NCBI GenBank assembly: GCA_965178125.1
Contig: OZ237745.1
Span: forward strand, 1,302,001-1,352,734
Direction: 5' to 3'
Origin: Bilabrum cf. latius
Taxonomy: Eukaryota
DNA: 50,734 nt
The translations under genes were made by a program, and so were the position numbers. The notes beneath the pieces are model-generated. The model was not told where the DNA came from, searched no databases, and was given only the letters and a program-made list of their open reading frames with translations. Positions within the stretch are counted from its first letter, which is position 1; each line of letters begins with the position of its first letter. Below, one piece after another: positions 1-43,665 of this stretch.

Positions 1-3000
1 GCATTGAGAAGTTCGCTCATCGAGTGTTTGCCTGTTGAGATAGATTTGCTCGCTATCAAACCGGCGAGGGTTGCTCTCAGGAACTGAACTGCACATCGCT
101 TGGCATGTACAGGGCCTCGAGGGGCCTCCTCAACCGCTTCTTCCCACCCCCATCTAGCTATTGCTGGGACTGATCCAGGTTCCAATCCGTGCGCCGCCTC
201 AAAAAGTCTGGCATCGAGCTCTTCCAATGGGGAAGGGTCCCCAGGAGTGTCAAAAGGTGATGCAGCTGCAGGTCGTCCATCGGCAATCTTCGGTTTTTTC
301 ATCTATCCAGCATCCAATGGCCCCTCCCTGGCAGCTGTCATGCCACTTTGCTGCTGCAATTTGATTTCATCAAAGTACGGGCTTTGCGCCCAGGGCACTC
401 TTGGATCGAGCGAGCCCACAGTTGTCGTGCTGGCTGCCCGAAGCGGCGTTGCCAAGTCGTCCTCACTTTCCCCATCATCAGATCCGCAATCGACACCAGC
501 ATCAAGCTAGTTGGGTTGGTCTCTTGCTACAGGGACATCGCCCTGGGGCGTCGATACATCCCCTTTCCGCCCGCCACGGACAGTCAAACCAGGTCCTGGC
601 GGGCCAACTAAAGCGAATGCCGGCAAGTGCGCCTCACCACCGGCAGGAAGAAAGTGTCGATTCAGCAGTCGGAAAGAGTGCAGTACCATGGAATCCAGCG
701 GCAGCAGCGCTCCACGCTTGCCTATATCAACAGATTCATTGCCAGCCTAGCTATCGTGGACTGCCTGTACGTCATCTTCTCCTACTCCTTCTTCATCAAC
801 CATTTTGCGTGATTCTGCGGCACTTTCAGCACGTGGGGAAGACTCTGACGCTGTCGTGCGCCCCGTAGGCCCCGGCTTCCAGGCAACCTCAGCCACCACA
901 CCTGCTTGCGGCGCGGTTGCTAGTGCTATTCTTGGTGGATCGATCAAAAACTTTCGATTCTAACCGCCAAGCTTGCCGAGGACTCGAAGTGCATCGGTGC
1001 CGTACGGAGCTGGGGACCCTAGCAAAAGGGAGGACAGTGCCGCCATCAGAGGGCGCAGGATCGTTGGCTTCGATAGCATCGGGAAAAGGAAGCTTGGGTT
1101 GAGATTGTCGATCCAGAACTCAAGCGTTCGCAAACCGGTCCCAACTAAATCGGTTGCCGCTAATGTTTCGCCGAGCCGTGAGCCGTCTGCCCTTTTCTTG
1201 GAGCTTGCACTGGACAAACTGTCGTCGCGATCGCTCTGCCCGTCTGCACCTGGACTCACTTGCGCTGCCGATGGCGATCCGATGGCTGCGCCCATCGGAG
1301 CCGCGGCATGCTTTCTTGCGGAGCCTGGAGTGTGCGAAACTCCTGCTGGATACACAGCTGGTGCAGCTGCGACTCGGCCATCCCTTTCAACTGGACCAGC
1401 GCCGGTCCCAGCTCCATACTATGGAGACGGGCGTGACCTGAGCGCTAGAATCAACGGGCCCATCAACCTAGGCAGCCACTTGAGCTGGTGCGAAAGTCTT
1501 GCCGGCACGATCAGCAGCAGCTCAGTGCACTGGTCACGGAGCTCCGGGTCGACCATGGTAGATCTACAAGCCAGCAGTGAGTCCAAAATGAGCGGTAAAT
1601 GGGGAGGAAACGCTCTGAACAGGTGGTCTGACCTCGAATTTGCTACTTGCTTAAAAAGTTGTCGAAGCAAGCTGAGATGGTACACTGGTCTCTTGCACCC
1701 CGGCATGCTGCCCAGAATGCCAACGAGGAGGCTGGAAATAAACCGCACCAGGATTCTATCGTGGACTCTGAACACCTTTGCTAGAGAATACAGCACTAGC
1801 CTGCATAGTCGCACGACAGTAGCCGCCCTGGCATGTGGCGGAAAGCATGCCAGTGGCGTCTCAGCAGTGATCGGCGGCGATAGCGGGTCCCTGACGTCTG
1901 GGCCAGGAGGCGGTGGAGTTCTGTTTACACCAGGCCGCGGCCCTTCTCCTGGCCTCCCCTCAGCCGACGGCCCATCTGAAGTCGCGATCAAAGCTGTATT
2001 TAGGGCATCGTAAGCATGTGCGGGGTCGTCTGCCGACAAGAGGTAAAGATGCCTCGAGATGAACTCCAAGAACTCCTCGGCAAATACCGGAGCACTGTCC
2101 GGGCTACTCATCAGGATGGTTGCAATCACTTGGGATGGCGGGTGAGCCACGAAGTACCGGAACAGCATTGGCATTGTCTTGCCGGCCAGTATTTCCCGGA
2201 GATGGATCGTAGGAAGGATGCTAAGCACGCCAGCAATGTGCTCGAAGCACTTGCGCTGGTCATCTGCAATCTTCTGGGCAACATCATTGGCTGCCTCCAG
2301 GGCTTCATCGGCAGCAGTATACTCGCCCTCAGAAGTGGCCGCTGCAGTGCTGTGTGCAGGACCTCCGCTGAGATCCTCTGCAGCGCACAGAGCAGTTGGG
2401 CGCCCATCCGCACCTGGAACCCTGGGCAACACTGGGCGGGCATGCTCGCCCGAATCAGCGCCTTGAGCGCCAGATCCTGCAAACCCGAAGACAGGCATTT
2501 CGCTCGAGCCATCCTCGAAGCACCCCTGCGTGCCAGATAGTGGGAGAGTGCGCATGCCAGCACCAAGGCCTGCGCCAGCAGCAGCGCTAGCCACAGACAG
2601 CTGGACACCACGCTCATCGAACGATGTCGCGCGCTGCCACCGAGCTGAGGACCATCGCAACCTCTGTGCTGCGGCTCGGTATGCATCGCCAGGAGCTGGG
2701 GTCGCGCCGGTGACCGGCTAGCTCCCAGCTGTAGACGCGCTGAGCGAGCTTGCACCCCCGGCAAGGGCGGAGCGGTTCAGAGCCTGCTGATGGTACGCAG
2801 TGCGAGCGTCGGACCTGGATGCACCAGGTGCCCACTCCGAGGCCACAAGAGCCAGCGATGAGCGCACAGAGTGCGGTCTAAACGCTGAGACACCCCCATG
2901 TGCCGTTGCTTCATCAGAGGCCAAGCGAACGATTCGAGCTGCTGCATGGGCGGAGTCGTCAGCAGAGTGGATTCTCGTGCACTCCAGCAGGTACCGCACA

Positions 3001-6000
3001 GCATCCCTCAGCATACTGACTTCTTGCTCCGACAAGCGACAGGCCGGAAGGACAGAGCTCCGCGTTGCGTCCAGGCTGAACTCGGCCGAGACTCCAGGAA
3101 TACTTGACTCACCTTGAGGCCGGGGCGGCTTCAGCTTTAGCTCGGCAGCTCGGGCTGCTGCTCTCGCTCTCCCCTCGGTTCGAACAGGGAAGTTGAGCAC
3201 GCACCACGTGAGCGTCTTGAGACCAAGCCCCATGGTCCGAAGAAGATCACGCATTGACCTAGATCCGTCAAGTGATGACCCGGCGTGGCCTTCGTGGTCC
3301 TCTTGCTCCGAGTCCGAGCGCGGGTCAGCGGTCTGCGCAGTGGGAGGCACACCTTGGGATGAGCGCCACCACGGCCCTTCGGCTCCAGGTGCAGCAAGAG
3401 AAGCCGATGTCGGGAAGCCTAAACCGTCAACAGGATGCGCCTTCCATCGCTGTCGCTGCCGCCGCAATGCCAGCCGCCGGCGCAAAGCACCGCGACGGAA
3501 TCGCATCCGCAGAGAATCAGCACTGCGTTCGGCTCCATCCTAAGACTTGGCAAGCTGCATCATGGCCCGAGCTTCCTAAAGCGCCTCTGCTCCTGCAATG
3601 GCTGCGCCCACTTCGCCTTCATCATCGGCATCCGCGTCCTCTTCTTCCGATCCAGCCAAAAAAGCATACATCTCGGCGTTCCCCGAGGAGCGCTCTCCAG
3701 ACAGACTGGCTATGCCACCAGCCTTGCGCAGCGGACACTTGTCGTCTTCGCCTTCTGACCAACCCTCATCGTCACTGCTACTGCGGTGCTGGGGCGCAGC
3801 ATCGCCACCACCATCCATTGCAGCCTGAACACTGTCGCTGGATTGACTCTCAGTGGCTTGCCCGGCCCACCTGAGCATCCTGCGCAGTCGGCGCTGTTCG
3901 AGCACCTGCCTCCACGCCCGACGAACCTGCCTCCGGCGCTCTCGAGCAAGTACGACAGGAACGTACGCTCGAAGTGAATCGAACTTGCGGATTAACACCA
4001 TTAGCATTCGAGTCAACAAGCTCCTCGCATCCTCCTCGCGAGGCTCGTCCGAATGGTACACGTGATCCGTCAAGTTCAGGATTAGACGGGCGCTCATAGT
4101 CTGGATGCCAAGAGGAAGCGTCGGATCGGCAATTATTTGCGCGAACAGACGCAGCACCCTGTCAATCTGGACCATGCTCAGTCTGGCTCGCACGTGGTGC
4201 ACCAGGTCAGCAACTGTGGACAGAGCCTGCGCACGCAGGGCGTCATGCGAGGCCCTGCCGCATCCAAGCAGAGCACCTTCGTCCAAGAAGGTGTCCACGT
4301 CGTGCTGAAAGGCTTTCTTAAATATTTTGGACTGCAGGATGTGACGCGTCCCGACCAGCACATCCTTCCTCAGAGTGACGGCGGAATTCGGGCATCCCCT
4401 CAAAAGTCGCACAACGCACCGCGCAACAACCCGGTGGGACAGCTGCTGCACCTTCGCAGAGCGAAGCACGCTATCGAACTTGCCGTACAGGAAAACCAGG
4501 AAGGCGAGAGCCTTGACCTGTGCCGTGTATAGCTCCACTCTGTGCCGCTCATGCGTGGCTCGAAAATCCGCCTCCGCTTCATCGGCAGCTTTCTTGCTCT
4601 GTGACGCCGGAGATCCGCGTGGAGATGGTGCTGATACCGGCGTACTGCTCGTGGATGCACTCTGAGACAGCTTGGGCGTACTAGGCAGCTGCGAGACGCC
4701 AGCCGTCTCGTCCGACACGTCGCTGCCCACGCTGCTCGAGCCGCCTTCGTCATCCATGGCTGCCTGCCCACTTTCCTTCGCCTGCGAGCTCTGTACAGCC
4801 TGCTACCGCACTGCCTCAATAAGGTCTTGGGGGGGTTCCAGAGGAACTCTGATGTTCAGCATCGTGGCCATGTGCACCGCAAGCGTAGGTGTGTGCCGCT
4901 GAACATACCTCGGGTTGAGCTACAGCACCATCATGATGAGAAGAGGCAGCTCTGTGAGCACCTTGAGCGACTCTCCAGGACGAAGCACCCGCTTGCCGAG
5001 CGCTACCTCCCGCATCCGCTCACGGGTTTCATCGGGCACAGCGATGGCAGTGCAGGGTACGTCGAGGTCGGTGGATTCCTCCATAGCAGGCTACTTGCCG
5101 CTTCCAGCTGCACTGGCCGCCTCTGCCGCCCCTACCGCTGGTGATGATGGCAACGATGACGCAGCCCCAGCCGCGGCGGGGTCGGCCTTTTCCACGGCTT
5201 CTGAAGCCGCTGCTTGCTTCTTCTGCGCGTCTCCAGCGACAGGGATGTCGTCCGGCTTCTCCATGTCGCCCCCAAGAAGGCCAGCTGCCACCACAGGGAG
5301 ATTTTCAAAGGCCTTCTCTGCGAAATGCAGTAGTTTCTCGACTGCCTGTCCAGCCGTGTTGTTGTCGAGGTCTCTGTGGACCTTGTGGATGTCCATCACC
5401 AGCCGAAGACCGAGGATTGCCGTGTCCTCAGGGTCGCTTCGTAAGGCAAGCATGCCGAGTTCAAGCATACGGCTCGCGTATGGCCTCTAAACATCATTCT
5501 CTGGCAGCCTTTGCAGAATCTCGAGAATGAGCTTGCGCGTGTCGTTCTCAATCCCGGGACGATCCTGCGAAACGACATTATATGGCAAGCATGGCAATGA
5601 GACAGGCATGTTCAGGAACCGTATGGCCCCTTTTTAGCCAACACAAACACTAATAAACATGTTAGGACTCACTTGAGGCTGAATGCGCTCGTTCAGCAAG
5701 AACTCAAAGGCTCCCAGCAAGTGCTCTAAAAAGTGCCTGTAAGCCTGCGTGTGAACAACGTCTATTTGGTCCCGCACGCCTCGCACGTAGTCGTGTATCG
5801 TCTACAGGGGCTGTGATGCATCCTTCAGCTTCTCTGCGCGCCTGATGTACTGGGCTTCCATGCTTGCTGTAGCTCGCGAAGAGCTGGAGCTTGAGGCTGC
5901 ACCCACAGTCTGCTAAGCACGACCAGTAGATGATTCTGAGGATGCGTTAGAAGAGACCACTTCGTTCGTCTATCTATCGGAGGGCATGGGGGCACCATCC

Positions 6001-6029
6001 ATTGGAACAGAACCGCTGTTTGAGGACAT
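1..6029 (-). CDS. TRRAP: TRRAP/Tra1 (PIKK pseudokinase of SAGA/NuA4), N-terminal HEAT region; runs off the left edge
   Basis: ORF pieces 5091-5468, 3576-4757, 2718-3506, 1419-2660, 960-1355, 747-947 and 507-689 share one frame and each ends in TAG. Motifs SLKVLTELPLLIMMVL*L, AQVKALAFL, LLLIVPARLS, GLRTLEFWIDNLNPSFL and ALRVLGKLGG match TRRAP/Tra1. ATG at 6029; one intron at 5565-5672. Confidence 0.95.
5565..5672 (-). other. GT-AG intron in TRRAP (108 bp)
   Basis: Donor CAA|GTGAGT and acceptor TTTCGCAG|GAT. It contains an in-frame TAA, and removal joins ...ERIQPQ to DRPGIENDTRKLILEILQRLP. Confidence 0.8.
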
Positions 6030-6372: not shown

Positions 6373-7745
6373 ATGGCGGTAACTGGAGCAGCGGTTCCGT
6401 CCCCATCGAGGGGTTCAGTTCGAACTGAAGCGCCGTCTGTCGTGCCTATGAAAGTAATCGATGGACTCCGAGCTGCTGCGATTCTAGAGGAAGGTCTTGA
6501 AAAACTGGCTTTCTTGTCAGTCGTTGAGCCAGATGTTTTTGCTCACAAGGACGAGCTCGCACAAGCTGTTGGCGACGAGGTTCAGAGGACGGTAGAGCAG
6601 CAGCATGCATTGGAAACCAGGTACCGGGACTTGTTGCAGTAGCGAGAGCAGCTTAAAGGGGTCGCCGCAGCTAAAGCGAAGGCAGAGCCAATCACTGAAG
6701 AAATCAGGCGGGTATCCCGTGAACTTAGGAAAAACACTAATGCGCTCTCAAGAGGCCTCAAGGTTAGCTCTACTGCACCTCACAATCACACCAACCTGCC
6801 CAGTTTTGCGCCGGCAAGATCCGAAATCCATTGAACAGCCGCATCATTGCATCGCAGGATAACCCACGAATTAGTGATAATCTGCGGAAGATAGTGCAGG
6901 AGAGGTCTAGACTGTACTCTTTGCTAGCTGCCACAGTGGAGGAGCTGCAACCGAATGTCACGGCATCCCGTGCAGGGGCGTCTGGTACCGGCACAGCTCC
7001 TCCAACGGCAGGGAAGCCGCATTATACATCACTATCATCGTTTGTCGAGCAGGAGCGCGCGGCTCGTGCTCGCTTGGAGGAGCTCGAGCAGCAGCACCAC
7101 GCCGTTGTCCGGCGGGTGGAGTCCCTGCAGCGCACGCTCTACGAGGAGCGCCGCGCCCATGCAGCTGAAGTTCGGCGCAGGCAGGCGCGCATCGATGGAT
7201 TGTAGGCAGACGTGCGCGAAAAGAAGAATAGCACGGCGAAGACAGCGCGAGACGAGCGGAGGGAGGCGGCCGCGCGGACCGAGGCGTTGGCCCGTGGATA
7301 CCATCTGGAGGAGGCCTCCGCGGCGAGCAAGCTGGAGGAGGCCTCGGCGCGGCGGGTGATGGAGGACGCTGCTCACCAGGCCACCGCGAGCGCCCTGTCT
7401 GCCGAGCAAGCGGAGCTGGGCGAGGTAGCTCGCAAGCTGCGCGGGGACACGGAGGAGGAGCTGGCCCGCAAGAAGGTGGCCCTCGAGAGGATGAGGGAGA
7501 AGCGGTAGGCGAATGCCGAGGAGCTGGCCAGGCTGAGGGCCAGATTCGAGGCGCAGTTGAAGAGAGAGGCGGAGGAGAAGTTAGCCCTTGAAGAGGAAGC
7601 CAGGCTGGAGCGAATGCGCAGGGAGGAAGCCGAGAGGAGGAGGAGAGCAGCCACCGCCCTGCAGAGGGTGCTCGTCCCAGCCTTCTTGCTTGTCGACGAG
7701 AGGATGCCGAAGAAGAAGGGCAAGAAGGGCAAGAAAAAGAAATAA
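6373..7745 (+). CDS. IQCG: Dynein regulatory complex subunit DRC9 / IQCG-like coiled-coil flagellar protein
   Basis: Motifs AAAILEEGLEKLAFL, HKDELAQAVGDEV, RELRKNTNALSRGLK|DNPRISDNLRKI, a degenerate IQ-like AATALQR and a KKKGKKGKKKK tail. Intron 6763-6857 (AAG|GTTAGC...CGCAG|GAT). In-frame TAG at 6640, 7203 and 7506; ends in TAA. Confidence 0.75.
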
Positions 7746-7939: not shown

Positions 7940-8923
7940 ATGGAGACAGGTGGAGCTCCCACCAGCGTTAAAGCTCATAATAACAGAACAACTTTCATGC
8001 TTGGAACTGGAGATGCGCCGGATATGTACTCTACCTCGTAGCGTGATGCTTTCAAGGGCTTGGCTCCCGAGCCCGAAGACCCGAAGTTCGCTGCTCCCGC
8101 TGCATCAAAGCAGCGGGAGAGCAGGATTGTGCTTGGAAATGATACGTTTGAATACATTTCTACGTTCAAGGCAGACGAGAAGGCCTGGGGTGCAAAAGAA
8201 GCAGAAGAAGGTAAGAGAAATTTGCTTACAACCGCTGCCGAGGAATAATTTATCGGCTAATCTGATCTGATTTGGTACGTTGTAATGTCATTTAATAATA
8301 TTTCTGTGTTGCTCTGCCACGCAGCCCGCGGAAAGTAGATTCTCCGAGACACAAGGGCGACGAGCTATTCGCTTGGCCACGCAGAGTCTGATTTTGGCAC
8401 AACTCAAGCAGACGCATTTGTCACATACAAGGTTGATCCAAAAGACTAGGAGGAAGAGCGCAAACGGCAAGCTGGAGTCAGGAGTGAGCTTCGTCATACA
8501 CATTTTACTTTGGGGGACGCAGAAACGGATTACACGACAACAACATCAGCTGGATAGGCCGCTGAAGCAGACTTGGTTCGAGCGGTGGCAATTGATTCTC
8601 GGCGGGAGCAGGACGCGCAGCAGAAGGCTCGCGTGGACGAGCTCAGGCGTCCCCATATCGATTTTGGCGACGCCAAGCCCGAGTGGACGACTACGAACGC
8701 CTTGCCGGCCCACAAGGTTGGCAAGTTCTCGATGACCAGGAAGTACATGCATGGAACCTCGTTTACGTTGGGAGATGACAAGTGCGATTGGCAGACTACA
8801 TCGTATGCTGCGGAGGGCAAGCCCCCAGAGCAGCGCGTGAAGCTCGGGACAGTGGATGTGCCCAGGCGTGATGTGGATTGGAAAGCTCAACTTGAGAAGG
8901 CAATGGCCACCAAGGAAATTTAA
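7940..8923 (+). CDS. Repeat protein with T(H/S)FxLG...(Y/W)xTT units, probable ciliary microtubule inner protein (SAXO/TEX45-like)
   Basis: About six repeats (TTFMLGTG, SRIVLGND, TSYSLGHA, THFTLGDAETDYTTT, PHIDFGDAKPEWTTT, TSFTLGDDKCDWQTT). Intron 8211-8324 (G|GTAAGA...GCAG|CC). Four in-frame TAGs; ends in TAA. Confidence 0.55.
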
Positions 8924-9104: not shown

Positions 9105-10902
9105 ATGTCCAGCACTTATTTGTCCCAGTCGTATAAAGTAGAGCCATGGCCACCATAGCAGCAATCCCAGGAGCCATCTGTAGAATTGCTGCGCAGCACA
9201 AGGTCGTTGGCTCGTCGCGTTGATTTTCACAAGCCATTGGACCCTCCTTCACTGAGGAAACGGAGAGAAGAAGTAATAAATGCGCTAACCAGCGTGTTTG
9301 AACGGTTTGTTGCGGATATGGCGGTCCAGAAAGGTTTAGCTAGCTCTGGGACGGAGGCGAGATAGTACGGCGGGCAGGTCCGAATCTCGGGTTCGTTTCG
9401 GTTGGGCATTACGTCAGAAGGAGACGACATCGATGCCATTTGCATTGCCCCTAAACATGTTGTCAATGAAGATTTCTTTAAGAGCCTTCCTGCGTTGCTT
9501 GCCAAGCACCCATACGTCGATTCGGCGCGGCCCATCGAAGGAGCGCGCGTTCCCCTCATTGATTTGGTCATGCGAGGCATTCCCATCGACCTCCTTTTCT
9601 GCCGTTTGGACCGACGAAGCGTTCCTCAAGTTGGTCTTGATAGCATTTCGACCAGTAGTCTGTCCGGTCAGTCTGAATTCGATCCCCGCTTCGACATTAT
9701 GGACGACCGAGTTTTGATTGGAGCAGACGAGGCCTCTGTGCTCTCCCTAAATGGACCGCGCTGCACGGAGCAGCTCCTGATGCTTGTGCCACCATCCAGA
9801 CTTCCGGTGTACAAGCATGCATTGCGGGCCCTGAGACTGTGGTGCAAGCGGCGCGGGATGTATGGCAACAAGTTTGGGTTTCTCGGTGGCATCAACCTCA
9901 GCATCATGCTGAACTATATCGTTCAGAGATTTCCAGCGTATAGTCCTGCTGGGCTGGTGCTGCGCTTCTTCGTGTGTTTCTACAGGTGGGAGTGGCCCAG
10001 GCATTTCTCGGCCCAGCGCACCATCTACCATCGCGCTGACTTCACAACGCCCGTGCGCGTGTGGGATCCGGAGACTGACGTGCGGGCTAGAAGCGACAAG
10101 ATGCCCATTCTGACCCCCTGCTTCCCTGTCACCAACAGTACCGTGAATGTGAACAGCCATACTCTCCGGCGCATGCAAGCCGAGTTCCTTCGAGGCGTCG
10201 CCGCCACGTTCCACGCAGTCTTGCGACTCGGCGGTGGCTCCAAGGCGATGGAGCAAGCTGACCCCAGCGCGGCCTCATAGGCGTTAGAAACAGCTTCGGA
10301 AGCATGGGATGTGCTGTTCCGCCCGAGTGAGTTCTTCCTGGAGTTTCCATTATACATTGCTGTGCACGTGTGGGCGGATGAGCACGCCCCGGACCTTGAG
10401 GGCGAAACGGTAGCTGGGGCCGGGGCAGGGGCATCCACAGCAGGGGAAGCGCCGAAGCAGACGCGAGCAAGCTCCAAAAATGCCGAGGTTCAAGAACTGA
10501 AGAATGCCTGGAGCGACTACGTAGCCAGTCGCATGCGGCAGTTGATCGTAATAATGGAGCGTGACCGCCTGCCATTCGACCTGGCAGTGCCCTGGCCCAA
10601 GGGAATCGACTGGACCATGCCGATTGGGTACGAACGCACCGGTATATTTTCAGGGGGTGATGGACGGCCTGATAGCGTAGAGTGGGACGCTTCTGAGGTA
10701 GATCAGGATGAGCCTGGAAGCGAATCGATGGCAGCTGGCAAGACCGCATCGGAGGCGGAACGTACTGGCGACAGCGTGAGCTCCACGGCTGCCGTCTAGG
10801 AGTCAACTGAACTAGCTGATGCACAGAACCACGACTCTGCTGCAGGCGATTAGAAGGAGGACAGCGCTGGCATGGCAGGTAGCAGCCGTGATGAGGACAC
10901 CC

Positions 10903-10947
<45 letters not shown>

Positions 10948-11870
10948 CATTCGCTGGCCATGGCCCCCTTCCTGATGCTAGCTAGGAACAGGTGCAGTCG
11001 AGCGGTGCCGCAGGCGCAATAGACGGTACTGCTCCGGCAACAAGCAAAGGAAGACCGATCACTACGTACTACATCGGTCTGCGGCCTTCTTCACAGGGTG
11101 CATCGGGGTAGCCACTGCGATTTCCGGAAAATCTGCTGCCGGATTTCTTACAAGGTACGCTGATCAGCGGATACTCCGACTTCGATCCCAGAATGAGAGC
11201 AAGTTTCTAGCTTCTGCGGGACGTTGATTTACCCCTTGCAGTCTTCGACGGGGCGACGTTAGAACAGGTAGCGCAGGACAGACGGGCGGTGAAGGATGCA
11301 CTTGCGAACATGACATGGCTCGGGCTGCCAAACAAGGCGGCCTAGGCTGCGCTGTCTCGAGTCATGAAGATGCACTCGGCTGCCGACTCTGGCTCTGAGG
11401 AGGCTGGGATAGTGCAGGCCTCTCCTGCTGCTGCTGCAAGTTACGACCGAGATCAGGCCGCTCGCGAGACGAGCTCAGGCGCCCAAGATTCCGCGCCGTT
11501 GTAGCACGTGGACGCTGTGCAAGCTCCAGCTGTAGCAGGTGTCAAGCGACCCCGGGAAAGCCAAGCAGAGGCTGATCTGGCTAAGGGTAGTGCGGCCGGT
11601 CAAGGCAAGCCATCAACTCCCAGAACGTCTAGTAGTTTGGGCCCGAGCAATGAGGGGGGAACTGTGGAACACAAGCGACCGCGCGTCTCAAAAGAAGCCG
11701 CTGCTTCGCAACAAATGGATGTTGGGGTTGTGCAGCGCAGCACCGAAAGCCTTGGGAAGTCCCCGCAGCCCTTGGACCTCACGAGTATCGGAGGGTCGAA
11801 GAGAGGGGGCAAGGGCAGAGGCAAGAAAAAGAAGAGCAAGGGCAAGGTATCCGTCAAGCTGTTGACATAA
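9105..11870 (+). CDS. PAP1: Canonical poly(A) polymerase (about 921 aa)
   Basis: RREEVINAL, the GSFRLG...DDIDAICIAP nucleotidyltransferase motif, ARVPLI, SLNGPR, LWCKRRGMYGNKFGFLGG, MPILTPCFP and C-terminal TYYIGL/DLPLAVF. Single frame interrupted only by TAG; ends in TAA. Confidence 0.93.
10905..10946 (+). repeat. (AGC)14 microsatellite encoding poly-Ser inside the poly(A) polymerase
   Basis: Perfect AGC run that reads as Ser in the PAP frame. Confidence 0.9.
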
Positions 11871-11918
11871 TTGGAGTGCCATGGCTGGCCGTAGGTTGGA
11901 AGTCAATATGTGTGACAA

Positions 11919-13836
11919 TCACCTAAATGCAAACGGGTTATCACGACTCGTATCATTGGTCGGGAGCGGACCGCCTCCGTGGCCGGCGTGGTGGCCGCTG
12001 TGGGCACTGCATGATCCTGCAGCTCGCGAGTCGCCAAATCGAGGCATGGAGCTGCCGAATCCAGCACGAGCTCCGATAGAAGACGTCATTGGCCTCATTG
12101 GTGATCCCGTCTATGCCCTGCGATGCGCTGTCTTGAACCGCATGGGGCTGGGACTCCCCCACGCCTGCCTTGCAATGGGTGGATTTGGCAGACCGTACCC
12201 ATGGCCGCTACCTACCGTGCCGTCTCTTCTCACAGCGCGCTGCGTTAGAATGTGCGCCCCGCTCGTCCTGGGCCTCTGCAACGTGCCAGTGCGCGTACCC
12301 GGGCCTGACAGTCTGCTCGGGGCATACAGATCTGGCAGTCTGGATCGCTAACCTTGTCGACTGCGGGCACGCATGCTTGGATGCGGCTCCAGCTGAATGG
12401 CATGGTGGCCAGATTGCCAACCGCGAGCAGCATATGACCTTGACCTGGCGTCCAAGGCGACCTGCTGCACGAGCGAGGTGTGACATTGGCGACCTTGCGA
12501 AGTGGAGGCGCGAGTCGATGCAGCACGCGAAGTGAATACGGTACGAGACCGAGACGGGACAATCGGCGACATTAGAGCCTGCCGTGACTGAGTGACATTC
12601 CCTAGCATCGTATCATCCGGATCCTCTGTAGATTTCCGCCCAAGCCCCATTCGCCCAATCTATCGTAAAGCTGGACCGGGGGCCGTCCCACAGTGGTTCT
12701 CGACTGATCCTCTAGATACACTGTGCTGCTGGTCTCGTCGATGATTCTATGAAGTTGCAATCGCGCCTGCCGCATGCCGGTCACAGCTGCCTGCCCCCCT
12801 TGCTCCTCCGGCAACTGGCCAATTTTTTGCCTGGCGGATGGCGTGCTGAAACTCCTAATGCTACTTTTTCCAGTCAGATTTTGCTAATTCTGTGCGTGCA
12901 ACAGGCATGGACCTGCCCATCGCAGTGCCAGTGTCGCGCCTCGAGCGTCCGACCGGGTGGCGGCGCCCTCCAGCGTGGGACAGCGCGCCTCGATCCAGGG
13001 ACTGCGGCGCAGTGCGTAGACGACCTGAGCCGTCCGAACGGTAATATCCGTCCTTGGAACCGACTGACGATAGTCCCTATCGCTTTCGCCTTTCCCTGGG
13101 CCTTCGCGACCATGACAGCGGCGGCGGAGGCCCGAAGAGTCCACCGCCCTCGCCGAGGTCGAGGTCGAAAGCGGGTCGGGAGTCGCCAATACCACCGGTG
13201 GCAGCCTGGGATGCACTGTCCCAAAACAAGGACGTCGTCGGCAGCCCTGTGCTGGTGCCTATTCCGCCAGCCCCGCTGTGCGACCCAGGCGCAGTCTTGA
13301 TTCCAGTGGCCGAGCCCATCCCACGCCGACGCTGCATGCTGCTCTTGAATGTACCGCGGCGCCTAGACGCTTGCTTGCTATTTCTACAGGCTTTTTCGTG
13401 CTTTGCCAGTCGGTCTGGGGCGAACTTGCGCCCACAGCAGCTGCATGCGACTCGAATACCGGACGATGTGGCGATTAGCGATTTGGTGTCTCGGCTTGCC
13501 GACGGCGATATTTCAGTACGACCATGGTCATCGCCCGAGCCAGCAAATTCACCAGAGCTGCTCTTTCCTATACTTTTGGATGGAGCAGTTGGAAGCTTCC
13601 CTTGCGCTAGCTGTTGCGCTACATTTCTCGGCATTTGCGAAAGGATTGCAGCATTCTTTTTCGCACATGCTTTTAAATGAAACTTTAATGATGCCGGGAA
13701 AAACTGCGCATGACAAATTCCAGAACATTGAGAATACTCAGTGACTGTTGCAGTTCAAGAGCATCCACCCTCTCATTCACCGTCAACATCTCACCATCTG
13801 GCCGCATATCGGGCACGATCGGGCTCTTCTGTGCAT
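11919..13836 (-). CDS. C2HC zinc-finger protein (ZC2HC1-like)
   Basis: Two C2HC fingers: CPICGQM|FFPASLKFHLKAC, split by intron 13704-13794 (ATG|GTGAGA...CAG|TTT), and CSCCGRKFAPDRLAKHEKAC. Also a WKK*H*EFQHAIRQAK motif. Open through TAGs to TGA at 11919. Confidence 0.75.
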
Positions 13837-14046
13837 AGCCTTGAACGTTGCTCTGGCACTGAGGCCTCGATCCTACTAAGATCTAGGCCTAGAATCCCTA
13901 GGCTTGGCTCCGAGGCTCCGGACGTAAATTTCATGTTGCTTGCCCTTGCACCTTCATCGCTCACTTCAAATACGCAGTATCAATACCAATAGCACATCCT
14001 GTTGCAATTAGGCCTACAGTATCAGATATTAATTGTTTGAGGTCCC

Positions 14047-15351: not shown

Positions 15352-15468
15352 GCGCCCCAGATACCTTTCTCGATTAAGCAGACGCCAATTCTCGTTGTTT
15401 GCTCAACACGCGGTCCAATCGCAGATCAGTCTATACCCCGAATCTCACTGCCATTCGAGGCCACCCTC

Positions 15469-17340: not shown

Positions 17341-17620
17341 GGCTCTGCGGGGTTCAGCAACTCCCGGTGTGGCAACAAGTAGCTAAGCAAGTACTTCTTG
17401 AATTATACAACCATACTCTTGTAGCCCCAAACAACGACTAGGAGCGCCACAATTCTACAGAGCTTCCCCGCTGGCTCTGCCAGTGGAACCTCGAAGGAAC
17501 CTTCACGTCGACGGCTAAACAAGCATTTGCACCAAAATGCAGGATGACTGGCAGCTGAATTTAGATTATTTGCTTGGAACCCGGATTCCTGAGACGATTT
17601 CGAGTTAGAAGCGAACTAGA

Positions 17621-29800: not shown

Positions 29801-30735
29801 CTGCTGCCAAGTCCGTTGGCATCGAGCTTGAGACTTCGAGCAGCAAAGCTCTTGCGACAAGCCTTGATGAAGCTGTCAGCAGCGACAATCCTTGGTTGAA
29901 CAAGATTCTCAGGATTCTGGCCACCAGGTGCATGCAGCAGGCCGTATACTTCCCTTCGGGCGAATGCTCGCCGGCGTAGTACCTGCACTACGGACTTGCT
30001 ACTCCCATCTACACCCATTTCACGAGTCCTATTCGAAGGTATGCGGATGTGATGGTCCACAGATTGTTGGCTGGCTGCATCGAACAGGGCATCTTACCTC
30101 ACGAGTACGAAGACCGGTAGTGGATGCGCCGAGTCACTAGCAACCTCAACACCAGGCACTACAACAGCCAGATTGCCGGGCGTGCATCGGCAGCTCTATT
30201 CACGCAGATCTTTTTCGCTGGCAAGCCGAAAGAAGAGGAGGCCCTTGTGCTGCGTGTCCGGCGCAATGGGATCGTGGTTCTCGTGCCGAGCTACGGGCTC
30301 GAGGGGTCAGTGATGCTGGTTTGCCCCAGGAAGTACAGGGACACAGATGCAGAGAAGCAGTGGGCAGTTCACGAAGAGTCAGAGCTGGAGCTGAATACTG
30401 AAGCTACTTCTTTGACTTTCACCCCATCTAGTACTAGTGCAGCCAGTGGTGCAAGCGATGTGGCCAAGGCACCGGTCACGATAAAGCTATTTGACAAGGT
30501 CAGGATATTGCTGTCAGTGTAGGAAAGGGACAGGGCGCGGTAGAGGCATGAACTGACGTACCGGCTGGTGGACCCTCCGCTTCATGCCCGGGAGGATAGC
30601 GATTCTGCGATTGTCGGTAGCAAGCGGGTTGCACCAGAGCCTCCAAGCGGGAGCGTGCAGTAGGCGGGTAGTTCAGCGACGGCAGCCACTTCAAAGCAAT
30701 CGAGCGGATCGAGGGCCAAGAAGAGACGCCGATGA
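26893..30735 (+). CDS. DIS3: Exosome catalytic subunit DIS3/RRP44 (PIN + RNB), about 1280 aa
   Basis: [11 protein letters not shown], the PIN motif [63 protein letters not shown] and [28 protein letters not shown]. One frame with many TAGs; ends in TGA at 30733. Confidence 0.97.
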
Positions 30736-30827
30736 TGCTGCGTTCATTTTATGCCCATGCAGGGATACTTACACACACATTTCTGTAGAAATACTGTTAC
30801 GTGCCCTTCGCAATGCATCCATCGAGC

Positions 30828-31664: not shown

Positions 31665-31725
31665 TATCTATTATAAAGTCAGGGACAGGGTCGGGGAAAA
31701 ATATTTTCATCTTCACTTTTTGACA

Positions 31726-36530: not shown

Positions 36531-38066
36531 TCACTCGTTATCGGAGGAGGGTTCCGCATCGACAGCTGCCAGGAGCGCCTCAACAGCGTCCACGTCTGCT
36601 GCATTGAGATCTCCTTCCGCCGTCTTCTCGAGGGCCGTCATCAGGCCTACGAGCGTGCCCAACCCGTCGTCCCTCTCTTGAATTGTTTCCTGCACGTCCT
36701 CGAGCATGTCGTCGAGAGTTCGGCTGACGCCCAGCGCTATGTCATCGCAGGCAGCGAGGATGCGGTCCACCAGGTGCCGCTGCTAGTCGGTGAAGCCGTT
36801 GTCATCCACTCCACCGTCGTTCTCAGAGTCGTCTTGCTGGTTCTGGGCCTCGTTCTCTTCTTCCTCATCCAGCTCGTCCTGATCCTCCTCGTCCTGCTGC
36901 ACGAGTTCTATCGGAGCCTCATCCTCGTCCTCTTCATCGGCTGCGTCTGCGTGGTATCGATCACCGATCTCCTCTTCATCCTCCTCAGAGTCCTGTCGAG
37001 GCAGTGATGCTGCTGCTCCACTCCTTGCGCCTCTTGCTCCCCTCTTGTCCTGGCCAACGGCGTGGCGAGCTCCTCCGCCATAGCCCGGTTGGAGAATGGG
37101 CGATCGCTTGTGCTGTATCTTAGCCCGAGGTGCCGCTTCAGTCGCCTTCCTGCGCTCCGGTTCTGCCGGTTGCGCACCTTCATCCCTCGGCTTTCCCTTT
37201 GACTTTCCCTTTGACTTGCCCGCGGCCTTGGTCCTGGCCTTCAATTTGGCCTTTGCCTTTTCCCTGGCCTTGGCCTCCGCTCTCCGCTTGGGGCCGAGTA
37301 GGTCGTTGTTCAGTCGCTCGGTCTATGAGTCGCTGGACTCTGAGCCGTCTGAATCTTGCTCGCCTCGTTTCCTCTGGGCCTTGTAGGCACTGTGGTCCGC
37401 GACACCGTCGTCGGGGTCGTCCTCGTCGTCGTCGACCATGGCACTCCGTTTGTCCTTGCCAGCACGGGGTGCTCCACTCGGCGAAGCAGCAGCGGCTCCC
37501 GCAGAAGCATCTTGGTCCCCTGCGGCTGCCGCGGCAGAGTCCTTGACTGCCATGTCAAACACGTCTTGGAACACAGCCTGCATGCCTCCACGCGCACGCA
37601 CAGAGGCTTTCCCAGCTCCGTAGTCGCAGACGAACTTGATCGCGGTCTTGTAGTTCCTCCGCAAGCCATCCATGCCTGCCTTGAACCAAGGATTGTGGCT
37701 GGTAGAGTAGCCGCTGTCGCGCAGGCCCATGAGCATCTAATTCATCTTGCGGTAGCCTGGCGAGCTGGTGCCGCTAGTTGATGCAGCCGGATATAGGCGG
37801 TGACTCAGCACCTTCAGCATGTCAGGCGGCAGATCGGACTCATTCAGGTCCAGCATGGCATCCACGCAGGCTTTGATGCCCTCTTTCTTGGTCCCCTAGT
37901 AGTGCTCGGTAGACCCGCAGAGTAACCCGCAATCTTGGTGGAGGCCCACGAGGGAGATCAGCAGGACTTGCTTGGCAGCAGACGTGCTGACGCCTGAAGC
38001 CAGGGCAGCCACGACGGGGCGGGAGGCCTTGGTGTGCTTGACGCTGTAGCTCTTTGCGGCGGCCAT
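36531..38066 (-). CDS. Element-encoded unknown protein (about 511 aa; globular N-terminus, basic and acidic tracts, helical C-terminus)
   Basis: ORFs ending at 37896, 37323 and 36783 plus 36531-36770 share one frame, joined by four TAGs (37896, 37737, 37323, 36783); ends in TGA. Alternative upstream in-frame ATG at 38228. Confidence 0.75.
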
Positions 38067-38291
38067 AGTACTCTGCGGTGCTGGGGGAACACGGGTAAGG
38101 CCACGAACAGGCGCTTGGATGCGGCAGCGAACACGGACATGAGACCCAGGGAGTCTCCAGGGCAAGCTCGAGGGCAAAGAAAAAGAAGGCCACGACCCCG
38201 CGCACTCGGTCTCAGACCCGGGACCCATGATGTTAGGTCGATCCCCCAGTCGTGGGGGGGCGGACCCCAGCCCAGAAAAAAATTAAAAAAG

Positions 38292-38373: not shown

Positions 38374-38946
38374 AACCCACGCGAAACCGAAAAAAAATAC
38401 AGATTCGCATCAAAAGTGCACGCAACTTGCACTTGTCACGCCGAAACCTACCCGTTCACCCAACGAGCAGCGCGAAATCAGAAACACTCATATTGCGCTC
38501 CTTGTATTCAATTGCAGAGGCGCATACTTGGCATATAGCTACTATAGCATATTGTGCATACAACCCTAAAGCAAACGTGAGTCAAATCGATGGGGTATGC
38601 GTGGGGATTGCCTTGCGCAATGCGCTTGCTGCAACGTGGTTCAGACGTTTGGCTCAATTGCGCGACGGCAAGCACTCGTTGGAACTAATCTCGCGCATAT
38701 TATCAAATAATATAACATACTGCAAACAATTGCGCGGCGATATATAGGCTGCGCGCCCAATGCTCACTTTGCTTGCGGCAGGTGTGCTGCGACAACATTT
38801 GTGGTGGCCCGGATCAGGTTGCGGAACCTGATGCGCGGCACCGCCGTGACGAGTGCGCCACCAGGGAACAACGCATCGTACCATCATACTAATCACATCC
38901 CAAGTATATTATATATCCTTGTGGCATCTCTGTCCGCAGTCTGGTC

Positions 38947-41900
38947 ATGGCGCAGTCCACGTACGACGCCACCAAGCATGTGAAGGCTCTCGACTACCTT
39001 CGGGCCTTCCTGGACCGCCGCGCGAAGGGCTACGCTCAGAACCCGCATCGCGTGCGCATCGGAGTCCCAGGGCCACTTCAACCAGGAGGTGCCGCCCTGC
39101 CTGGCCCGCCGGCCGGCGAGGCGCAGGCCCAGATCCCGGCCCAGGTGGGGCCAGCGCCAGGCGGCCATGCCGCCGGGGGGGGCGATGCGGCAGGCCTGCC
39201 GGCCCCCGCCCCAGCCATCGGCGAGCATGCTCCGGAGCCCCAGCACCAGCAGCAAGAGGGCGCCCACCAACCACCACCTGGTGCAGCTCTTGCTGCTGGC
39301 CAGCAGGCGATGGCCGCCGCCCCGCCCCAGCACCCCGCTGGTCCGGGTGCCAACCTGCCGGTCCCAGGAGGCTTGCAGCCCGAGCCGCCAGCTGGCGATG
39401 CCGACGCCTTCCTCCCGATCCCGGAGCCCCAGCAGGAGCCTGCAGGTGGGCCAGCCGGCGTCGGTCCGGCCCCTCCAGCAGCCGAGCAGCAGCCAGCTGC
39501 CCAGGCTGCCCAGCACCAACTCGTCCCTGGGCCCGTGCCTCTCGCCGAGGTGCCCGTCCTGGCCGGGGTCGGCGCAGGGGAGGACGCGATGGAGGACGAC
39601 GAGCCCCCAGAAGCGGTCCAGGCCATCTTCCTCGGGCGCCAAGCCGCCCACGCGGCCACCCAGGCAGCTCGGCAGGCCATGGTCTGGGATGCTCAGGGCC
39701 AGCAGCCGCTCTTCGGGGCAGAGGGAGGAGCGCCCGAGCTGCCCATCCCCGGAGTCGTGTTCGCTGCCGGTGCAGAGGCAGCCGGCGCCCAAGGCGGTGG
39801 CGCAGGCCCAGACGCCGGAGGGGAGGTCGGTGCGCCACCCGTGCAGGCGTGGAACCTGGTCGTCGGCGACCCGGGGGGAGCGCAGGGAGAGGAGGCCCTG
39901 GCCGTCAACCTCCCGCCCGAGTACCGGTTCGGCATGCACGAGGCGACGGACGACCTCGCGCAGCACCCCATGCTGGCCTACCACATATGGGAGGTGGACG
40001 ACGAGGCGGTGCAGGCCCTGCAGGGCCTGCTGACCTGCGTTGGCAGGCAGGAGCTGCCTCCCGAGGTGTGGAGGGCGCTCGCACCTCCAGTGATGGAGAC
40101 GGTGACCATGCAAGGCATGCGGCGCTGGTGGGCGTACCAGAGGCGCGCCGTTGTCGTCGTGGACAGCCTCCTGCATGCCGAGACTGATGCTGCCGGCGTG
40201 GAGCAGCGCGCGCAGAGGCGCGGCCGCTTTCTCGTGCAGCTCGTTGGCTGGACTGACATCACCAAGATGCTGGAGAGCGAAGACCTGAACGAGGAAGGGG
40301 CTGCCTTCATTCGGAGCAAGCTGGCTTCGGTGGCGGTCAGCTTCTGGCCGTCTCCGATGCTGGCGGAGCCCGGGCTGCACAGCCACAAGCTCTCTCCGCT
40401 CCGCACGGAGTGGGATCACTACATCGAGTACAACCGCGTGGACGAGACGGTCTTTGACGCGGTCGGGCTCTCCGAGCAGCCTCCAGCGTTCGTGTACGAG
40501 GACGAGGACGAGGACGAGATGGAGGAGGGGCCGGCGGCGCAGCCGGCTGGGGCGGAGGAGCATGCAGAGGGCGACGAAGATGCCGGGTATGAGGCTGGAG
40601 AAGGCGAGTGGGGTGGGGAAGGCCAGTGGGACTCGGACGGAGACCAAGGCGGCGACGAGGAAGCGGATGGTGGAGATCCTGCCGCGGGGGCTTTCGGAGC
40701 TGCGGATGCCGAGCTGGAAGGCGAGCCTGAAGAGGAGCAGGAGGCCGCCCCGGATGTGCTGCGGAACCCACCAGACGGCATGGCGGCCCCCGTGGCGGTC
40801 CGCTCTGAGCTCTCCGATGTCGACGCCATGGAGGTGGTCGGGATCCTAGCCGGCGCCGGAGCCTCCCAGGAGGTGCAGACCAGCCCGTTCATGCTGGTGC
40901 TTGGGGGGCCGGTGTCACGGCTCCTGCTGGACGAGCCGCTGGACCAAGCCTACGGCCTCATCGACGTGCTGATTGGAGCCGACTCGGCGACGCAGGATGG
41001 GGTCCTCTGCGGGCGCAGGGGTCTGCAGAGGGACGGGGGGCAGATCAGGGTGCAGTCGGCCACGCAGCAGCACCAGCGCACCGAGGTGGAGACGAGCGGC
41101 TCATCCAGGCCCCGGCTCGGCTACAGCATCGTCTTCAACCGGCACATCCCCACGTAGGAGCGGGACAATCCCGGCACGCCGAGGACTCACGGCGCGTACT
41201 ACTCACCCCGCATCGACGTCGCGTACCTTGGACCGATGGGGATCCAGAACATGGGTGTGGATTCGGAGCCGCTGCGGCTGCACCGCATCCATCACGCTCT
41301 CCCTGCACCAGCAGGGGACCACGTGACCGTCCAATCCCTGACATCGGACGTTCGGAGTGCAGCTCGTCGCTTCCACCAGAGCAGCGAGGAGGTTGGGGTG
41401 CTAGAGGAAGCTGAAGCGATCCTGGAGGGAAGCACCGGCACAGTGCGAGGCAATGCCAGGGCCGTGAAATCCGCACGTGCCACGCTCCGCAAGTACCTCA
41501 CGATGATGCCCAAACAGCGCGGGGTCGGATCTGGCGACGTCTCGGTCTCTGTCCTCCTGGCGGGGGCGGCTGAGGTGCGAGTCGTGCTACCGGAGGGCGG
41601 TGTGGCTCGGGTGTTTGGCGTTGCTCACGCAGGGTCTGAGGAAGAGCAGGCCTCCTTGCGCACACTCGCGAGGCGCTGGAACATCCGACGACTGGAGGGT
41701 ATGCGCCTCGTTGGAACGCCGTTCGACCAGGCCGTGCAGTCGCTCCTGATTGGCATCGCAGGCGCCATCAACTACGTGAGAGAGAAGGAGGGGTACCGCG
41801 GGCCCGAGTTCATGGTGCAGTCGACCCCGAGGACTGCCACGACGGCGCAGGGACTCTCCGCATCGTACGCGATTGTAGCAACCGACTCGCCCGTCGGTGT

Positions 41901-43665
41901 CTCTCGCGGAAGCACCCACACCGAGACTTTGAGTCCTGGAGACCGTCACATGGGCGTGCGTGGGACTGCTGAGCCTGATGGCGGGCATCGCAGCAGGCCC
42001 GGGTACTTCCTGTGCGAAGTGCTCCGGGTCCTGAGCGAGGACGCGGCCCTGCATCCCACCCAGGTCAGCCATCTGCCCCACAGGCTGAGATATCCTGACG
42101 GACTGAAGATCCAAGGGGTCCTGGCGTGCTCGATCTACCGAATCCTGGTCGTCGGGGGCCAGAACCAGGCGGCGGTTGCTGTGATGCGATCCCTGATGCT
42201 GCGACAGGCTCCGGCCGCTGGTGAGCCTGAGGAGGACCCTCCGGACCACGGCGGGCACCCTGTAGTGTTTGTCGACCCTCTTGCCGCCGGGAGGGACGCC
42301 ATCCGCATGGCGACGGAGCTCGGGCAACATCGACCAGAGATCCAGTGCCAGGACCCCGTGTTGCTCTCCATGGACCTGGGCTTCATGGCAGGTGGCGGCG
42401 ACATGCACGCTGCGTTTCCGAGCGTGCTGGGCCTGCGTCATGCCATGGCACTTGCGGGTGAGGCCGTGGCCGACATCTCCTCCGTACCGGGCTTCGGACA
42501 GGTGGGGAGCTAGTTCGTCTTCCCAATGCAAGTGGATGAAGAGAACGTGAACTGCCTGCTCATGAGCCCATCTCTGGGCAGTGTGCAGTTCAGGGCTCGT
42601 GCCAGAGGCGATACGCAAGCTGCCATGACTAAGCATGACTTTCAGCACGTGGCTGAGCTGGTATCGCAGGCCACCCGCGAGCGGGACGACGAGTTTGTTC
42701 GGAAGCTCTTGCCCGCGATGCTGAGCGTATCTCACGGGGTGCAGATGTACGTCGAGCAGGCGTTCCGCTCCACGAGGCTCAGCGGCGACAGTCACCAACG
42801 GCTTGGGTCTCGGCTGTATGGTGAGCTGGAGCGATGCAGGCAGCAGGTTCCAAAGGTGGGGCGGGCTGCTGCGGCCACCATGGCAAGGGTTGCGCACGAC
42901 GAGGCCACAGAGATCGCGTGTCGCAGGTTGCAGGCTATTGGTGACGCTCGAGCGTCGCTTCGCGTCGAATTCAGCATGGCAGGGCCTGGTCTGCTGATGG
43001 GACTAGCAATGGCGCTGGGACTTGAGGACGGACACGCCAGTCTCGTGGATGCCCTGGCGGAGGGAACGTCGACAGTTCGAGCGCCCTTCTTTGACACAGT
43101 TGCTGCCATGGTGCAGCGGGAGGTGGCGCATGCCGTCACGCGGGACTTGGAGGAGGCGGTCCGAGGGGCCATGGCTACGGCGGCCAGTATCGAGAACAAG
43201 GCTATGGCGGCCGAGCAGGTGTCGGACGGTTTGGCTGTTCAGCAGGCGGTCGCGGGGGAGCTGCGCATGCTAGCGCTGGATGTGTCGCAGATGGTGGCCC
43301 CCACCCAGACTGGGCAAGCCATGACCCGGTCCATCATGGAGTCCGTCCTTCCGCGTCCCGAGGCCAGACTGCGGCAGGCCATCTGGCATGTGGCGGATGG
43401 CACCATTGCGGACCGACGGCGAACGGTGGAGAAGGATCCACGCAGCTGGAACGGCCAGTGCCGCGTCGCCCAGGCAACTCTGGCTATGGTGCTTCAGGTT
43501 GTGACCAGGGGCGGGGTGAGGGAGATCACGGATCCGGAGGCCCGCTCTCCAGAGGTGCTTCCGAAGCTGCTGCACGGCGTAGCGTCACTCATTGTGGTGG
43601 GTGTGCAGTCGGCCTCGCTCATTGCCTGCACGGGGCAGCGACCACTCGCGGTTACACGGGCTGAC
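38947..43665 (+). CDS. Element-encoded large unknown protein (over 1570 aa), lacking its own stop and running into telomeric repeats
   Basis: ORFs 38947-41157, 41236-42513 and 42526-43707 share one frame, joined by TAG at 41155 and 42511. Pro/Ala/Gln-rich N-terminus, acidic linker, then globular-looking regions. No domain recognised. Confidence 0.75.

Follow-up and report, generated by a model that had tools for sequence, protein, structure and literature searches.

Evidence that UAG is read as glutamine, while UAA and UGA remain stops, in GC-rich, gene-dense nuclear DNA of a eukaryote

How is UAG read in an organism whose long genes are interrupted by in-frame TAG codons? The question is raised by a 50,734-bp stretch of nuclear DNA in contig OZ237745.1 (the window, i.e., the whole stretch that was analyzed), with a GC content of 0.50–0.67 in 2-kb steps. 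Under the standard code, the window is fragmented into short pieces. With TAG translated as a sense codon, it contains 13 long open reading frames (ORFs) on both strands, extending from position 3 to ~43,670 and comprising 10,958 codons. The ORF for Tra1/TRRAP runs off the window, and the other 12 are closed, 10 by TGA and 2 by TAA. An earlier reading of the letters alone (the sequence-only reading) had proposed that UAG encodes glutamine (Gln), with UAA and UGA kept as stops. Our results support this proposal. We conclude with high confidence that this is GC-rich, gene-dense, and intron-poor eukaryote nuclear DNA, and that in cytoplasmic translation UAG specifies Gln, whereas termination occurs mostly at UGA and also at UAA, i.e., the pattern of NCBI table 15.

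Six ORFs were identified by Pfam (Tra1/TRRAP, poly(A) polymerase or PAP, GH28, MFS_1, DIS3, and ACBP+Ank), with matches that span TAG codons. A seventh encodes a C2HC zinc finger protein (Pfam), and the remaining ORFs had no family. The alignment of DIS3 with RRP44 from the PDB also passes through TAG codons. The seven genes, together with two TAG codons that are central to the argument, are as follows:

3..5609, minus strand: main exon of Tra1/TRRAP, off the window edge; 12 in-frame TAG; Pfam Tra1_central, E 5.4e-98; 20 homologues.
4920..4922, minus strand: TAG codon at TRRAP aa230, in an invariant Gln column.
9105..11870, plus strand: poly(A) polymerase; 10 in-frame TAG; TAA end (11868); Pfam PAP_NTPase and PAP_central.
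11919..13870, minus strand: gene for the zf-C2HC protein; 7 TAG in the main ORF; TGA end; Pfam zf-C2HC_2; intron 13704-13794.
14047..15351, plus strand: GH28 polygalacturonase; 3 TAG; TGA end; Pfam Glyco_hydro_28, E 1.4e-48.
15469..17340, minus strand: MFS transporter; 5 TAG; TGA end; Pfam MFS_1.
20748..21935, minus strand: ACBP and ankyrin-repeat protein; 2 TAG; TGA end; Pfam ACBP and Ank.
26893..30735, plus strand: DIS3/RRP44 exosome nuclease; 15 TAG; TGA end; Pfam PIN_4, CSD, OB_Dis3, RNB, and S1; PDB RRP44, E 1.4e-183.
28465..28467, plus strand: TAG codon at DIS3 aa525, in an invariant Gln column; CAA in a close relative (contig L001, see below).

Within the 13 ORFs, TAG occurred in frame 82 times, and neither TAA nor TGA occurred internally. 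Off frame (frame 1/frame 2), the counts were 117/106 for TAG, 25/43 for TAA, and 162/253 for TGA; at these rates, ~241 (241.5) internal TAA and TGA codons would be expected, compared to none observed. Three of the 82 TAG codons fall in the (TTAGGG)n array that ends the doubtful ORF 38947-43980, and 79 remain. TAG amounts to ~0.75% of all codons and to ~15% of the putative Gln codons of the window. UAG is thus a frequent sense codon, and UAA and UGA are never found inside genes, in a sample of these 13 ORFs and four ORFs of the close relative. The sequence-only reading had described genes, including TRRAP, PAP, and DIS3, that are interrupted by TAG only, and this was confirmed. The gene ends that it gave (TAA at 7743, 8921, and 11868; TGA at 11919, 15349, 15469, 18863, 20748, 30733, and 36531) were all correct, as were the TAG codons it singled out (28465, DIS3 aa525; 29653, DIS3 aa921; 26929, DIS3 aa13; 4920-4922, TRRAP aa230). 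That the genes are split by TAG alone holds for in-frame stop codons, of which TAG is the only one, but not for introns, one of which is present at 13704-13794 and another, probably, in the gap from 5609 to 5634. The frame said to end near 43665 had to be corrected, as it runs into a TTAGGG array.

The amino acid at UAG was examined in alignments with distant homologues of DIS3 (120 of 247 matches) and TRRAP (20 homologues), in which TAG was translated as X and hence not biased to any residue. DIS3 aa525 corresponds to Q in 120/120 homologues, and TRRAP aa230 to Q in 20/20. Most other TAG columns with good occupancy were polar or variable in DIS3 (of 120: aa532, K82/Q24; aa1029, E88/D24/Q4; aa921, E57/A21/T13/Q8; in addition, aa1217 was H26/N17/Q16) and in TRRAP (aa1550, R17/G2/K1). 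Hydrophobic columns were found at DIS3 aa13 (L42/V30/I16, with Q in 3/109), TRRAP aa41, and TRRAP aa690. Of the four homologue motifs that the sequence-only reading had cited as placing Gln at TAG, those at DIS3 aa525 and TRRAP aa230 were borne out, and those at DIS3 aa13 (Q in 3/109) and aa921 (Q in 8/120) were not found in the distant homologues; in the close relative, these two positions are CAG and TAG, respectively. Where a column was more than 0.9 conserved, 277/305 sense codons of the query encoded the consensus residue; Q columns of this kind held none of its E or K codons.

These columns were then scored in a calibrated profile test. Hidden Markov models (HMMs) were built from the homologues only, without entropy weighting, codons of each class were replaced by X ahead of alignment, and the query composition served as the reference for the scores. 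Of the 40 TAG codons in four genes, 18 fell on match states, and they scored 8.6 nats for Q, −6.9 for K, and −16.0 for E (Q 15.5 above K). In the controls, 57/61 sense codons were recovered, with a mean recovery of 0.927 at n = 18. Draws of 18 real columns were called correctly in 499/500 cases for E, 500/500 for K, and 458/500 for Q. With a Q-E score of 24.6, TAG falls inside the range for real Gln columns (19.3 ± 9.0) and is well separated from Glu columns (−29.4 ± 12.0).

Searches with two further genes bear on individual codons. GH28 matched three short database proteins (P0159, P0180, and P0182) at residues 1-117 (87%), 124-310 (97%), and 318-434 (90%). Two of the three end exactly before TAG118 and TAG311; evidently, a standard-code gene caller cut a near-identical gene there. 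The PDB search with ACBP-Ank returned ankyrin alignments only, with nothing informative on TAG148.

A close relative was found in two metagenome contigs, L001 and L002, by a six-frame search with DIS3. These closest DIS3 relatives surfaced in the six-frame DNA search only, and not in the protein search. Their DIS3 is 60% (L001) and 71% (L002) identical to that of the window in the best tblastn segments, and 65% and 73% identical in MAFFT alignments. L001 and L002 share a 1,259-bp overlap at 100% identity and so represent one organism from two collections. Their four ORFs are:

L001, DIS3: 967 codons; 13 in-frame TAG; no internal TAA or TGA; open.
L001, neighbour: 952 codons; 10 in-frame TAG; no internal TAA or TGA; open.
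L002, DIS3: 714 codons; 9 in-frame TAG; no internal TAA or TGA; ends with TGA.
L002, neighbour: 697 codons; 11 in-frame TAG; no internal TAA or TGA; ends with TGA.

The TAG codons of the window at DIS3 aa13, 525, 1029, 1076, and 1217 are CAG or CAA in the relative. Conversely, TAG of the relative's DIS3 stands opposite CAG/CAA of the window at eight sites, and TAG is present in both at two sites. Among 915 reliable codon pairs (flanks at least 50% identical), the partners of TAG (n = 18) were Gln 13 times, Glu twice, and Lys, Ile, and Ser once each, with two further TAG-TAG pairs. Compared with empirical partner tables from the same alignments, the log-likelihoods were −28.0 for Q, −55.7 for K, and −65.5 for E, so Q was 27.7 nats above K. 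Judged by these aligned codons, the relative settles the amino acid as Gln and has the same code as the window. Between the two organisms, TAG makes up 15%–30% of Gln codons at 60%–71% DIS3 identity.

The neighbours of DIS3 were compared as well. Upstream of DIS3, L001 1-2856 (minus strand) is a divergent counterpart of the window ORF 22209-26729, with 25% identity over 831 aligned pairs; synteny is thus kept. Downstream of DIS3, L002 2180-4270 (minus strand) is a 696-aa multi-pass membrane-like ORF with 11 TAG, and the window has repeats there.

Could UAA also encode Gln, as in table 6 codes, and be rare merely through high GC? With a GC content of 0.50–0.67, TAA is indeed less common in the whole window than either TAG or TGA (both strands: TAA 612, TAG 1103, TGA 1432). 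However, the CAA share of CAR codons in the window is 0.297, which gives ~35 expected in-frame TAA beside the 82 TAG if the two had the same meaning, and none was seen (simple binomial ~1e-18). TAA was moreover counted 25 and 43 times off frame, and three genes end at it. The relative, which has a lower GC content, uses CAA and CAG at 37:41 and contains 34 TAG; in-frame TAA is as absent from its 2,616 codons as from the 10,958 of the window. This absence, despite a CAA share of 0.30–0.47 in the window and the relative, indicates that TAA was not co-reassigned, and we regard the table 6 explanation as extremely improbable. TGA is a true stop, since the basic C-terminal tails of DIS3 from the window and L002 align and both end in TGA at matching positions.

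The TAG codons might also not be translated at all, if the genes were pseudogenes, if the assembly were erroneous, or if the codons were spliced or edited out of mRNA. The bare presence of stop codons would fit this, as would two small indels by which the window differs from public sequencing runs. Four public runs contain the stretch, none of them on record as RNA. In run X1, a single DNA-like contig of uniform depth covers 11900-30856 and agrees with the window, with no other letters. In run X5, contigs break at gene borders, and depth ranges from ~10 to 102. One X5 contig skips 91 nt, 13704-13794, bounded by CT..AC on the plus strand and thus GT..AG on the gene strand, and the skip keeps the zf-C2HC frame, including the second C2HC finger. 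From its contig borders, depths, and splice, we infer that X5 represents transcripts. The listed X5 pieces cover 47/48 in-frame TAG of 11900-31000 with no differing letters, and the listed X6 pieces cover 22. Those contigs therefore show no loss of TAG through splicing or editing, and the retention of 47/48 TAG in X5 speaks against their loss from mRNA to the extent that X5 is RNA. In addition, a single type of stop codon is in frame in all 13 ORFs and the four of the relative, frames and conserved domains cross the TAG codons, and in the relative, at 60%–71% identity, TAG is retained at some sites and swapped with CAG/CAA at others. The probability that the TAG codons are untranslated is practically negligible.

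As for the indels, X1 and X6 carry 12 extra bases after 26905, which add four codons near the N-terminus of DIS3 and give the length that L001 has there, and all four runs lack 6 bases present in the window at 26229. These differences reflect either variation between strains or a slip in the assembly of the window. X5 depth peaks at the GH28 locus and the MFS gene convergent with it, at ~102 compared with 10–43 elsewhere. Near-identical sequence (0.45–0.99 of sampled words) is present in public runs X1-X8, under four organism labels and from four studies; either the organism or close strains have been sequenced repeatedly, or it travels with other cultures.

Several findings weigh against UAG as Gln with UAA and UGA as stops. 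In the comparison with the relative, TAG is paired with a residue other than Gln in 5 of 18 reliable cases. When the two invariant Q columns are left out of the profile test, the other 16 columns score 3.7 for K, 1.7 for Q, and −4.6 for E. A BLOSUM-mixture score ties Q (5.71) with E (5.58), and default entropy-weighted HMM emissions place K and E ahead of Q with no background term (controls 50/61) and K ahead of Q with one (controls 36/61). TAG22 of GH28 faces Ser in the near-identical fragment, in a variable N-terminal stretch beside an indel. As a stop, TAA is seen at three gene ends (7743, 8921, and 11868), none of them backed by homologues. An ORF in which TAG counts as sense can end only at TAA or TGA, so some genes may use UAG as terminator, and one TAG lies three codons before the TGA of ORF 22209-26729. 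X5 is entered in the run table as 'RNA? (probably DNA)', and that it is RNA is our own interpretation. Finally, the sample is ~11,000 codons plus 2,616 in the relative, and not a whole genome.

The findings on the residue, together with the E- and K-rich columns of TAG codons in distant homologues (DIS3 aa532, K in 82/120; aa1029, E in 88/120; aa921, E in 57/120), would suit a UAG codon that specifies another amino acid, the nearest candidates being Lys and Glu. The BLOSUM-mixture and the default entropy-weighted scoring were set aside after controls. Neither Lys nor Glu accounts for the two invariant Gln columns, given that no E or K codon of the query occupies a Q column conserved above 0.9. 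Real E and K columns were recognized as such in nearly all draws of the calibrated test (499/500 and 500/500), where the Q-E score of TAG fell in the Gln range. Given also the 13/18 pairings with CAG/CAA in the relative and the likelihood gap of 27.7 nats, we consider Lys or Glu very unlikely.

The findings on termination raise the possibility that UAG is ambiguous, i.e., that it is read as Gln inside genes and marks the end of some genes in a context-dependent manner, as is the case for stop codons in Condylostoma, karyorelicts, Blastocrithidia, and Amoebophrya sp. ex Karlodinium veneficum. Such codes are documented in the available part of PMC12005148. Besides the TAG near the end of ORF 22209-26729, another precedes the DIS3 end by 23 codons, and in several ORFs the last TAG is in a tail that has no homologues. 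However, at 0.75% TAG per codon, ~0.45 of 12 genes are expected to have a TAG in the last five codons by chance. In GH28, MFS, ACBP-Ank, and DIS3, homology or Pfam matches still continue beyond the last TAG or late ones, and the DIS3 tail after the last TAG matches that of L002 in length, with TGA at the end of both. In-frame UAG together with in-frame UGA and UAA, as in codes of the Condylostoma, Blastocrithidia, and Amoebophrya type, was not encountered here; TAG alone was in frame. We consider an ambiguous UAG unlikely. The reading of UAG as Gln with UAA and UGA as stops, as advanced from the sequence alone, agrees with the invariant Gln columns, the calibrated profile likelihoods, the TAG to CAG/CAA exchanges, and the lack of in-frame TAA.

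Where in the eukaryote tree does this code occur? The DIS3 tree comprised 71 rows, namely the query and 70 of the 120 listed matches (50 were left out), and contained no ciliate DIS3. The query groups with two proteins (Shimodaira–Hasegawa-like approximate likelihood ratio test, SH-aLRT, 94) inside a 25-row clade (SH-aLRT 99), in which Symbiodinium sp. KB8 is the sole named row and which adjoins stramenopile clades (MAST-4; oomycetes and ochrophytes). The best named match of PAP is the bicosoecid Cafeteria roenbergensis (37%), and that of TRRAP is Balamuthia. On these similarities, the lineage appears to be SAR-like (stramenopiles, alveolates, and Rhizaria), and we name no phylum. The nearest full-length database relatives of DIS3 (~51% identity) are predicted as unbroken proteins, a hint, short of proof, that their code is the standard one. 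For the database relative P0006, the ESM Atlas contained DIS3 clusters labelled broadly as 'Eukaryota', which did not narrow the lineage. In ciliate macronuclei, telomere repeats are of other kinds, and the DNA is mostly AT-rich. A ciliate affinity of the window is unlikely, as its TTAGGG arrays, GC content, and multi-gene contig argue against ciliate macronuclear DNA.

Reassignment of UAG alone to Gln is rare and known from Iotanema, as the sequence-only reading had stated; this agrees with the available parts of PMC5304391 and PMC11687900. In the fornicate Iotanema spirale, UAG encodes Gln, and UAA and UGA are stops, with UAA as the main terminator (Panek et al. 2017, PMC5304391, as far as the available part describes it). 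As in the window, UAG alone was reassigned to Gln, UAA is a terminator, UAA and UGA do not occur in frame, and in-frame UAG is found at Gln columns. In contrast to Iotanema spirale, which was characterized from a transcriptome and terminates mainly at UAA, the evidence here comes from genomic DNA, and TGA ends 10/12 closed ORFs. DIS3 of the window, moreover, lies among SAR-type sequences, and not in Metamonada.

UAG as Gln with UAA and UGA as stops is also given for Protocruzia tuzeti and two phyllopharyngean ciliate lineages in the available part of PMC11687900. They have the same codon table as the window, which in turn is a 50-kb multi-gene stretch with 50%–67% GC and TTAGGG arrays. The same source lists UAG alone as Leu in the rhizarian exLh and some ciliates, as Ser in Scotinosphaera, and as Glu in one uncultured ciliate; UAG and UAA are uncoupled in all of these as in the window, but the residue is Leu, Ser, or Glu there and Gln here. 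UAG is Glu in Blastocrithidia, according to the available part of PMC12153298. In table 6 codes (UAR = Gln; many ciliates, Ulvophyceae, hexamitin diplomonads, Streblomastix, and Amoeboaphelidium), UAA is a sense codon, unlike in the window (0 compared with ~35 expected). Amoebophrya sp. ex K. veneficum has all three stop codons in frame and an AT-rich genome, as stated in the available parts of PMC6394959 and PMC12005148. It shares with the window the in-frame stop codons in essential genes, and possibly the same broad region of the tree (the sole named row of the DIS3 clade is a dinoflagellate), but differs from it in that the window has only TAG in frame and GC-rich DNA. Our literature search gave no report of UAG as Gln in the nuclear genome of a stramenopile, a dinoflagellate, or another non-ciliate, non-fornicate organism, with the supplementary taxon tables of PMC5304391 and PMC11687900 lying outside the search.

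This kind of code is rare but known, and it is carried by at least two related organisms. We lean slightly towards an unreported independent origin of uncoupled UAG as Gln in a SAR-affiliated, non-ciliate, and non-metamonad clade, as a trait of the clade and not of one species.

How might UAG be decoded while UAA still terminates? By the reasoning in the available part of PMC5304391, CUA is the only anticodon that reads UAG without reading UAA. Since CUA alone has this property, the decoder would most likely be a tRNA-Gln(CUA), which would pair with UAG and not with UAA. The simplest origin of this tRNA would be from tRNA-Gln(CUG) by one anticodon change. The release factor eRF1 would presumably have lost its recognition of UAG, or have it weakened. 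tRNA scans found no tRNA genes in the window or in L001-L004, Rfam gave no matches in the window, and eRF1 is not among the genes of the window.

The genes of the window are close-packed and almost without introns. The other features that were annotated are:

5634..6029, minus strand: putative first exon of TRRAP; matches homologue residues ~25-86 by blastp, and the main ORF aligns from ~residue 57.
Between 5609 and 5634, minus strand: short GT..AG intron of TRRAP, as suggested by homology; GTGAGT and CGCAG are present in the sequence.
6373..7745, plus strand: coiled-coil gene of at least two ORF pieces (6373-6834 and 7359-7745); TAA end at 7743; no Pfam family for 6373-6834.
7940..8923, plus strand: repeat-motif protein (ORFs 7940-8248 and 8285-8923); 4 TAG in total; TAA end at 8921; no Pfam family.
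17537..18589, plus strand: 350-aa ORF, no family; 3 TAG; TGA end.
18863..20494, minus strand: 543-aa coiled-coil ORF; 1 TAG; TGA end; sub-threshold Tropomyosin match only.
22209..26729, minus strand: 1506-aa ORF, no family; 12 TAG; TGA end; syntenic counterpart with 10 TAG beside DIS3 of L001.
36531..38228, minus strand: 565-aa ORF, no family; 4 TAG; TGA end.
38947..43671, plus strand: doubtful ORF (GC at third codon positions 0.75, overlapping antisense ORFs, no family); 2 TAG, then enters (TTAGGG)n.

ORFs 7940-8248 and 8285-8923 (both plus strand) have a common repeated motif, T-x-F-x-L-G-(x)-D ... T-T, and probably belong to a single gene, interrupted between 8248 and 8285 by an intron or a break in frame. 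The doubtful stretch 38947-43671 (plus strand), with antisense ORFs at 38893-40563 and 41203-43389, has a GC content of 0.62–0.67 and a much lower TAG density, with 2 TAG in ~1,575 codons. The hydrophobic N-terminus of the GH28 polygalacturonase suggests a secreted pectin-degrading enzyme of a protist.

Beyond DIS3, the window is rich in repeats. A 43-bp unit is repeated 6.5 times at 30827-31104, directly after DIS3, and the DNA-like contig of X1 stops at 30856, at the start of these repeats. At 33571-36264, a 22-bp unit is repeated 122.5 times with 99% matches and produces false ORFs of 928 and 941 aa. TTAGGG arrays, all in one orientation, are found at 31120-31665 (91 copies), 43675-43877 (34), 46750-46959 (35), and 49832-50419 (98). 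The first three are followed by a 155-bp satellite (11.7, 6.7, and 6.7 copies, respectively), and the fourth lies ~300 bp from the window end. Tandem Repeats Finder lists repeats of identical consensus 3,082 bp apart (43938/47020 and 45266/48348), and a ~3.1-kb unit is therefore present twice. Lying within the contig, the arrays resemble subtelomere-type DNA, or else healed ends stacked one on another.

Few nuclear codes give UAG and UAA different meanings. Another case, in a different lineage that is GC-rich and gene-dense, would add an independent replicate for how a release factor and a suppressor tRNA split the UAR pair, and it indicates that such a code change can persist across a clade with heavy use of UAG. 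Standard-code gene callers fragment these genes, as seen in the GH28 pieces P0159, P0180, and P0182; catalogue proteins of the clade are consequently truncated and hard to find by length-matched searches. Members of the clade are present in public runs under several labels and in two metagenomes. If the clade does represent an independent origin, it would provide a compact, intron-poor genome in which the separation of UAG from UAA by eRF1 and tRNA-Gln(CUA) may be studied.

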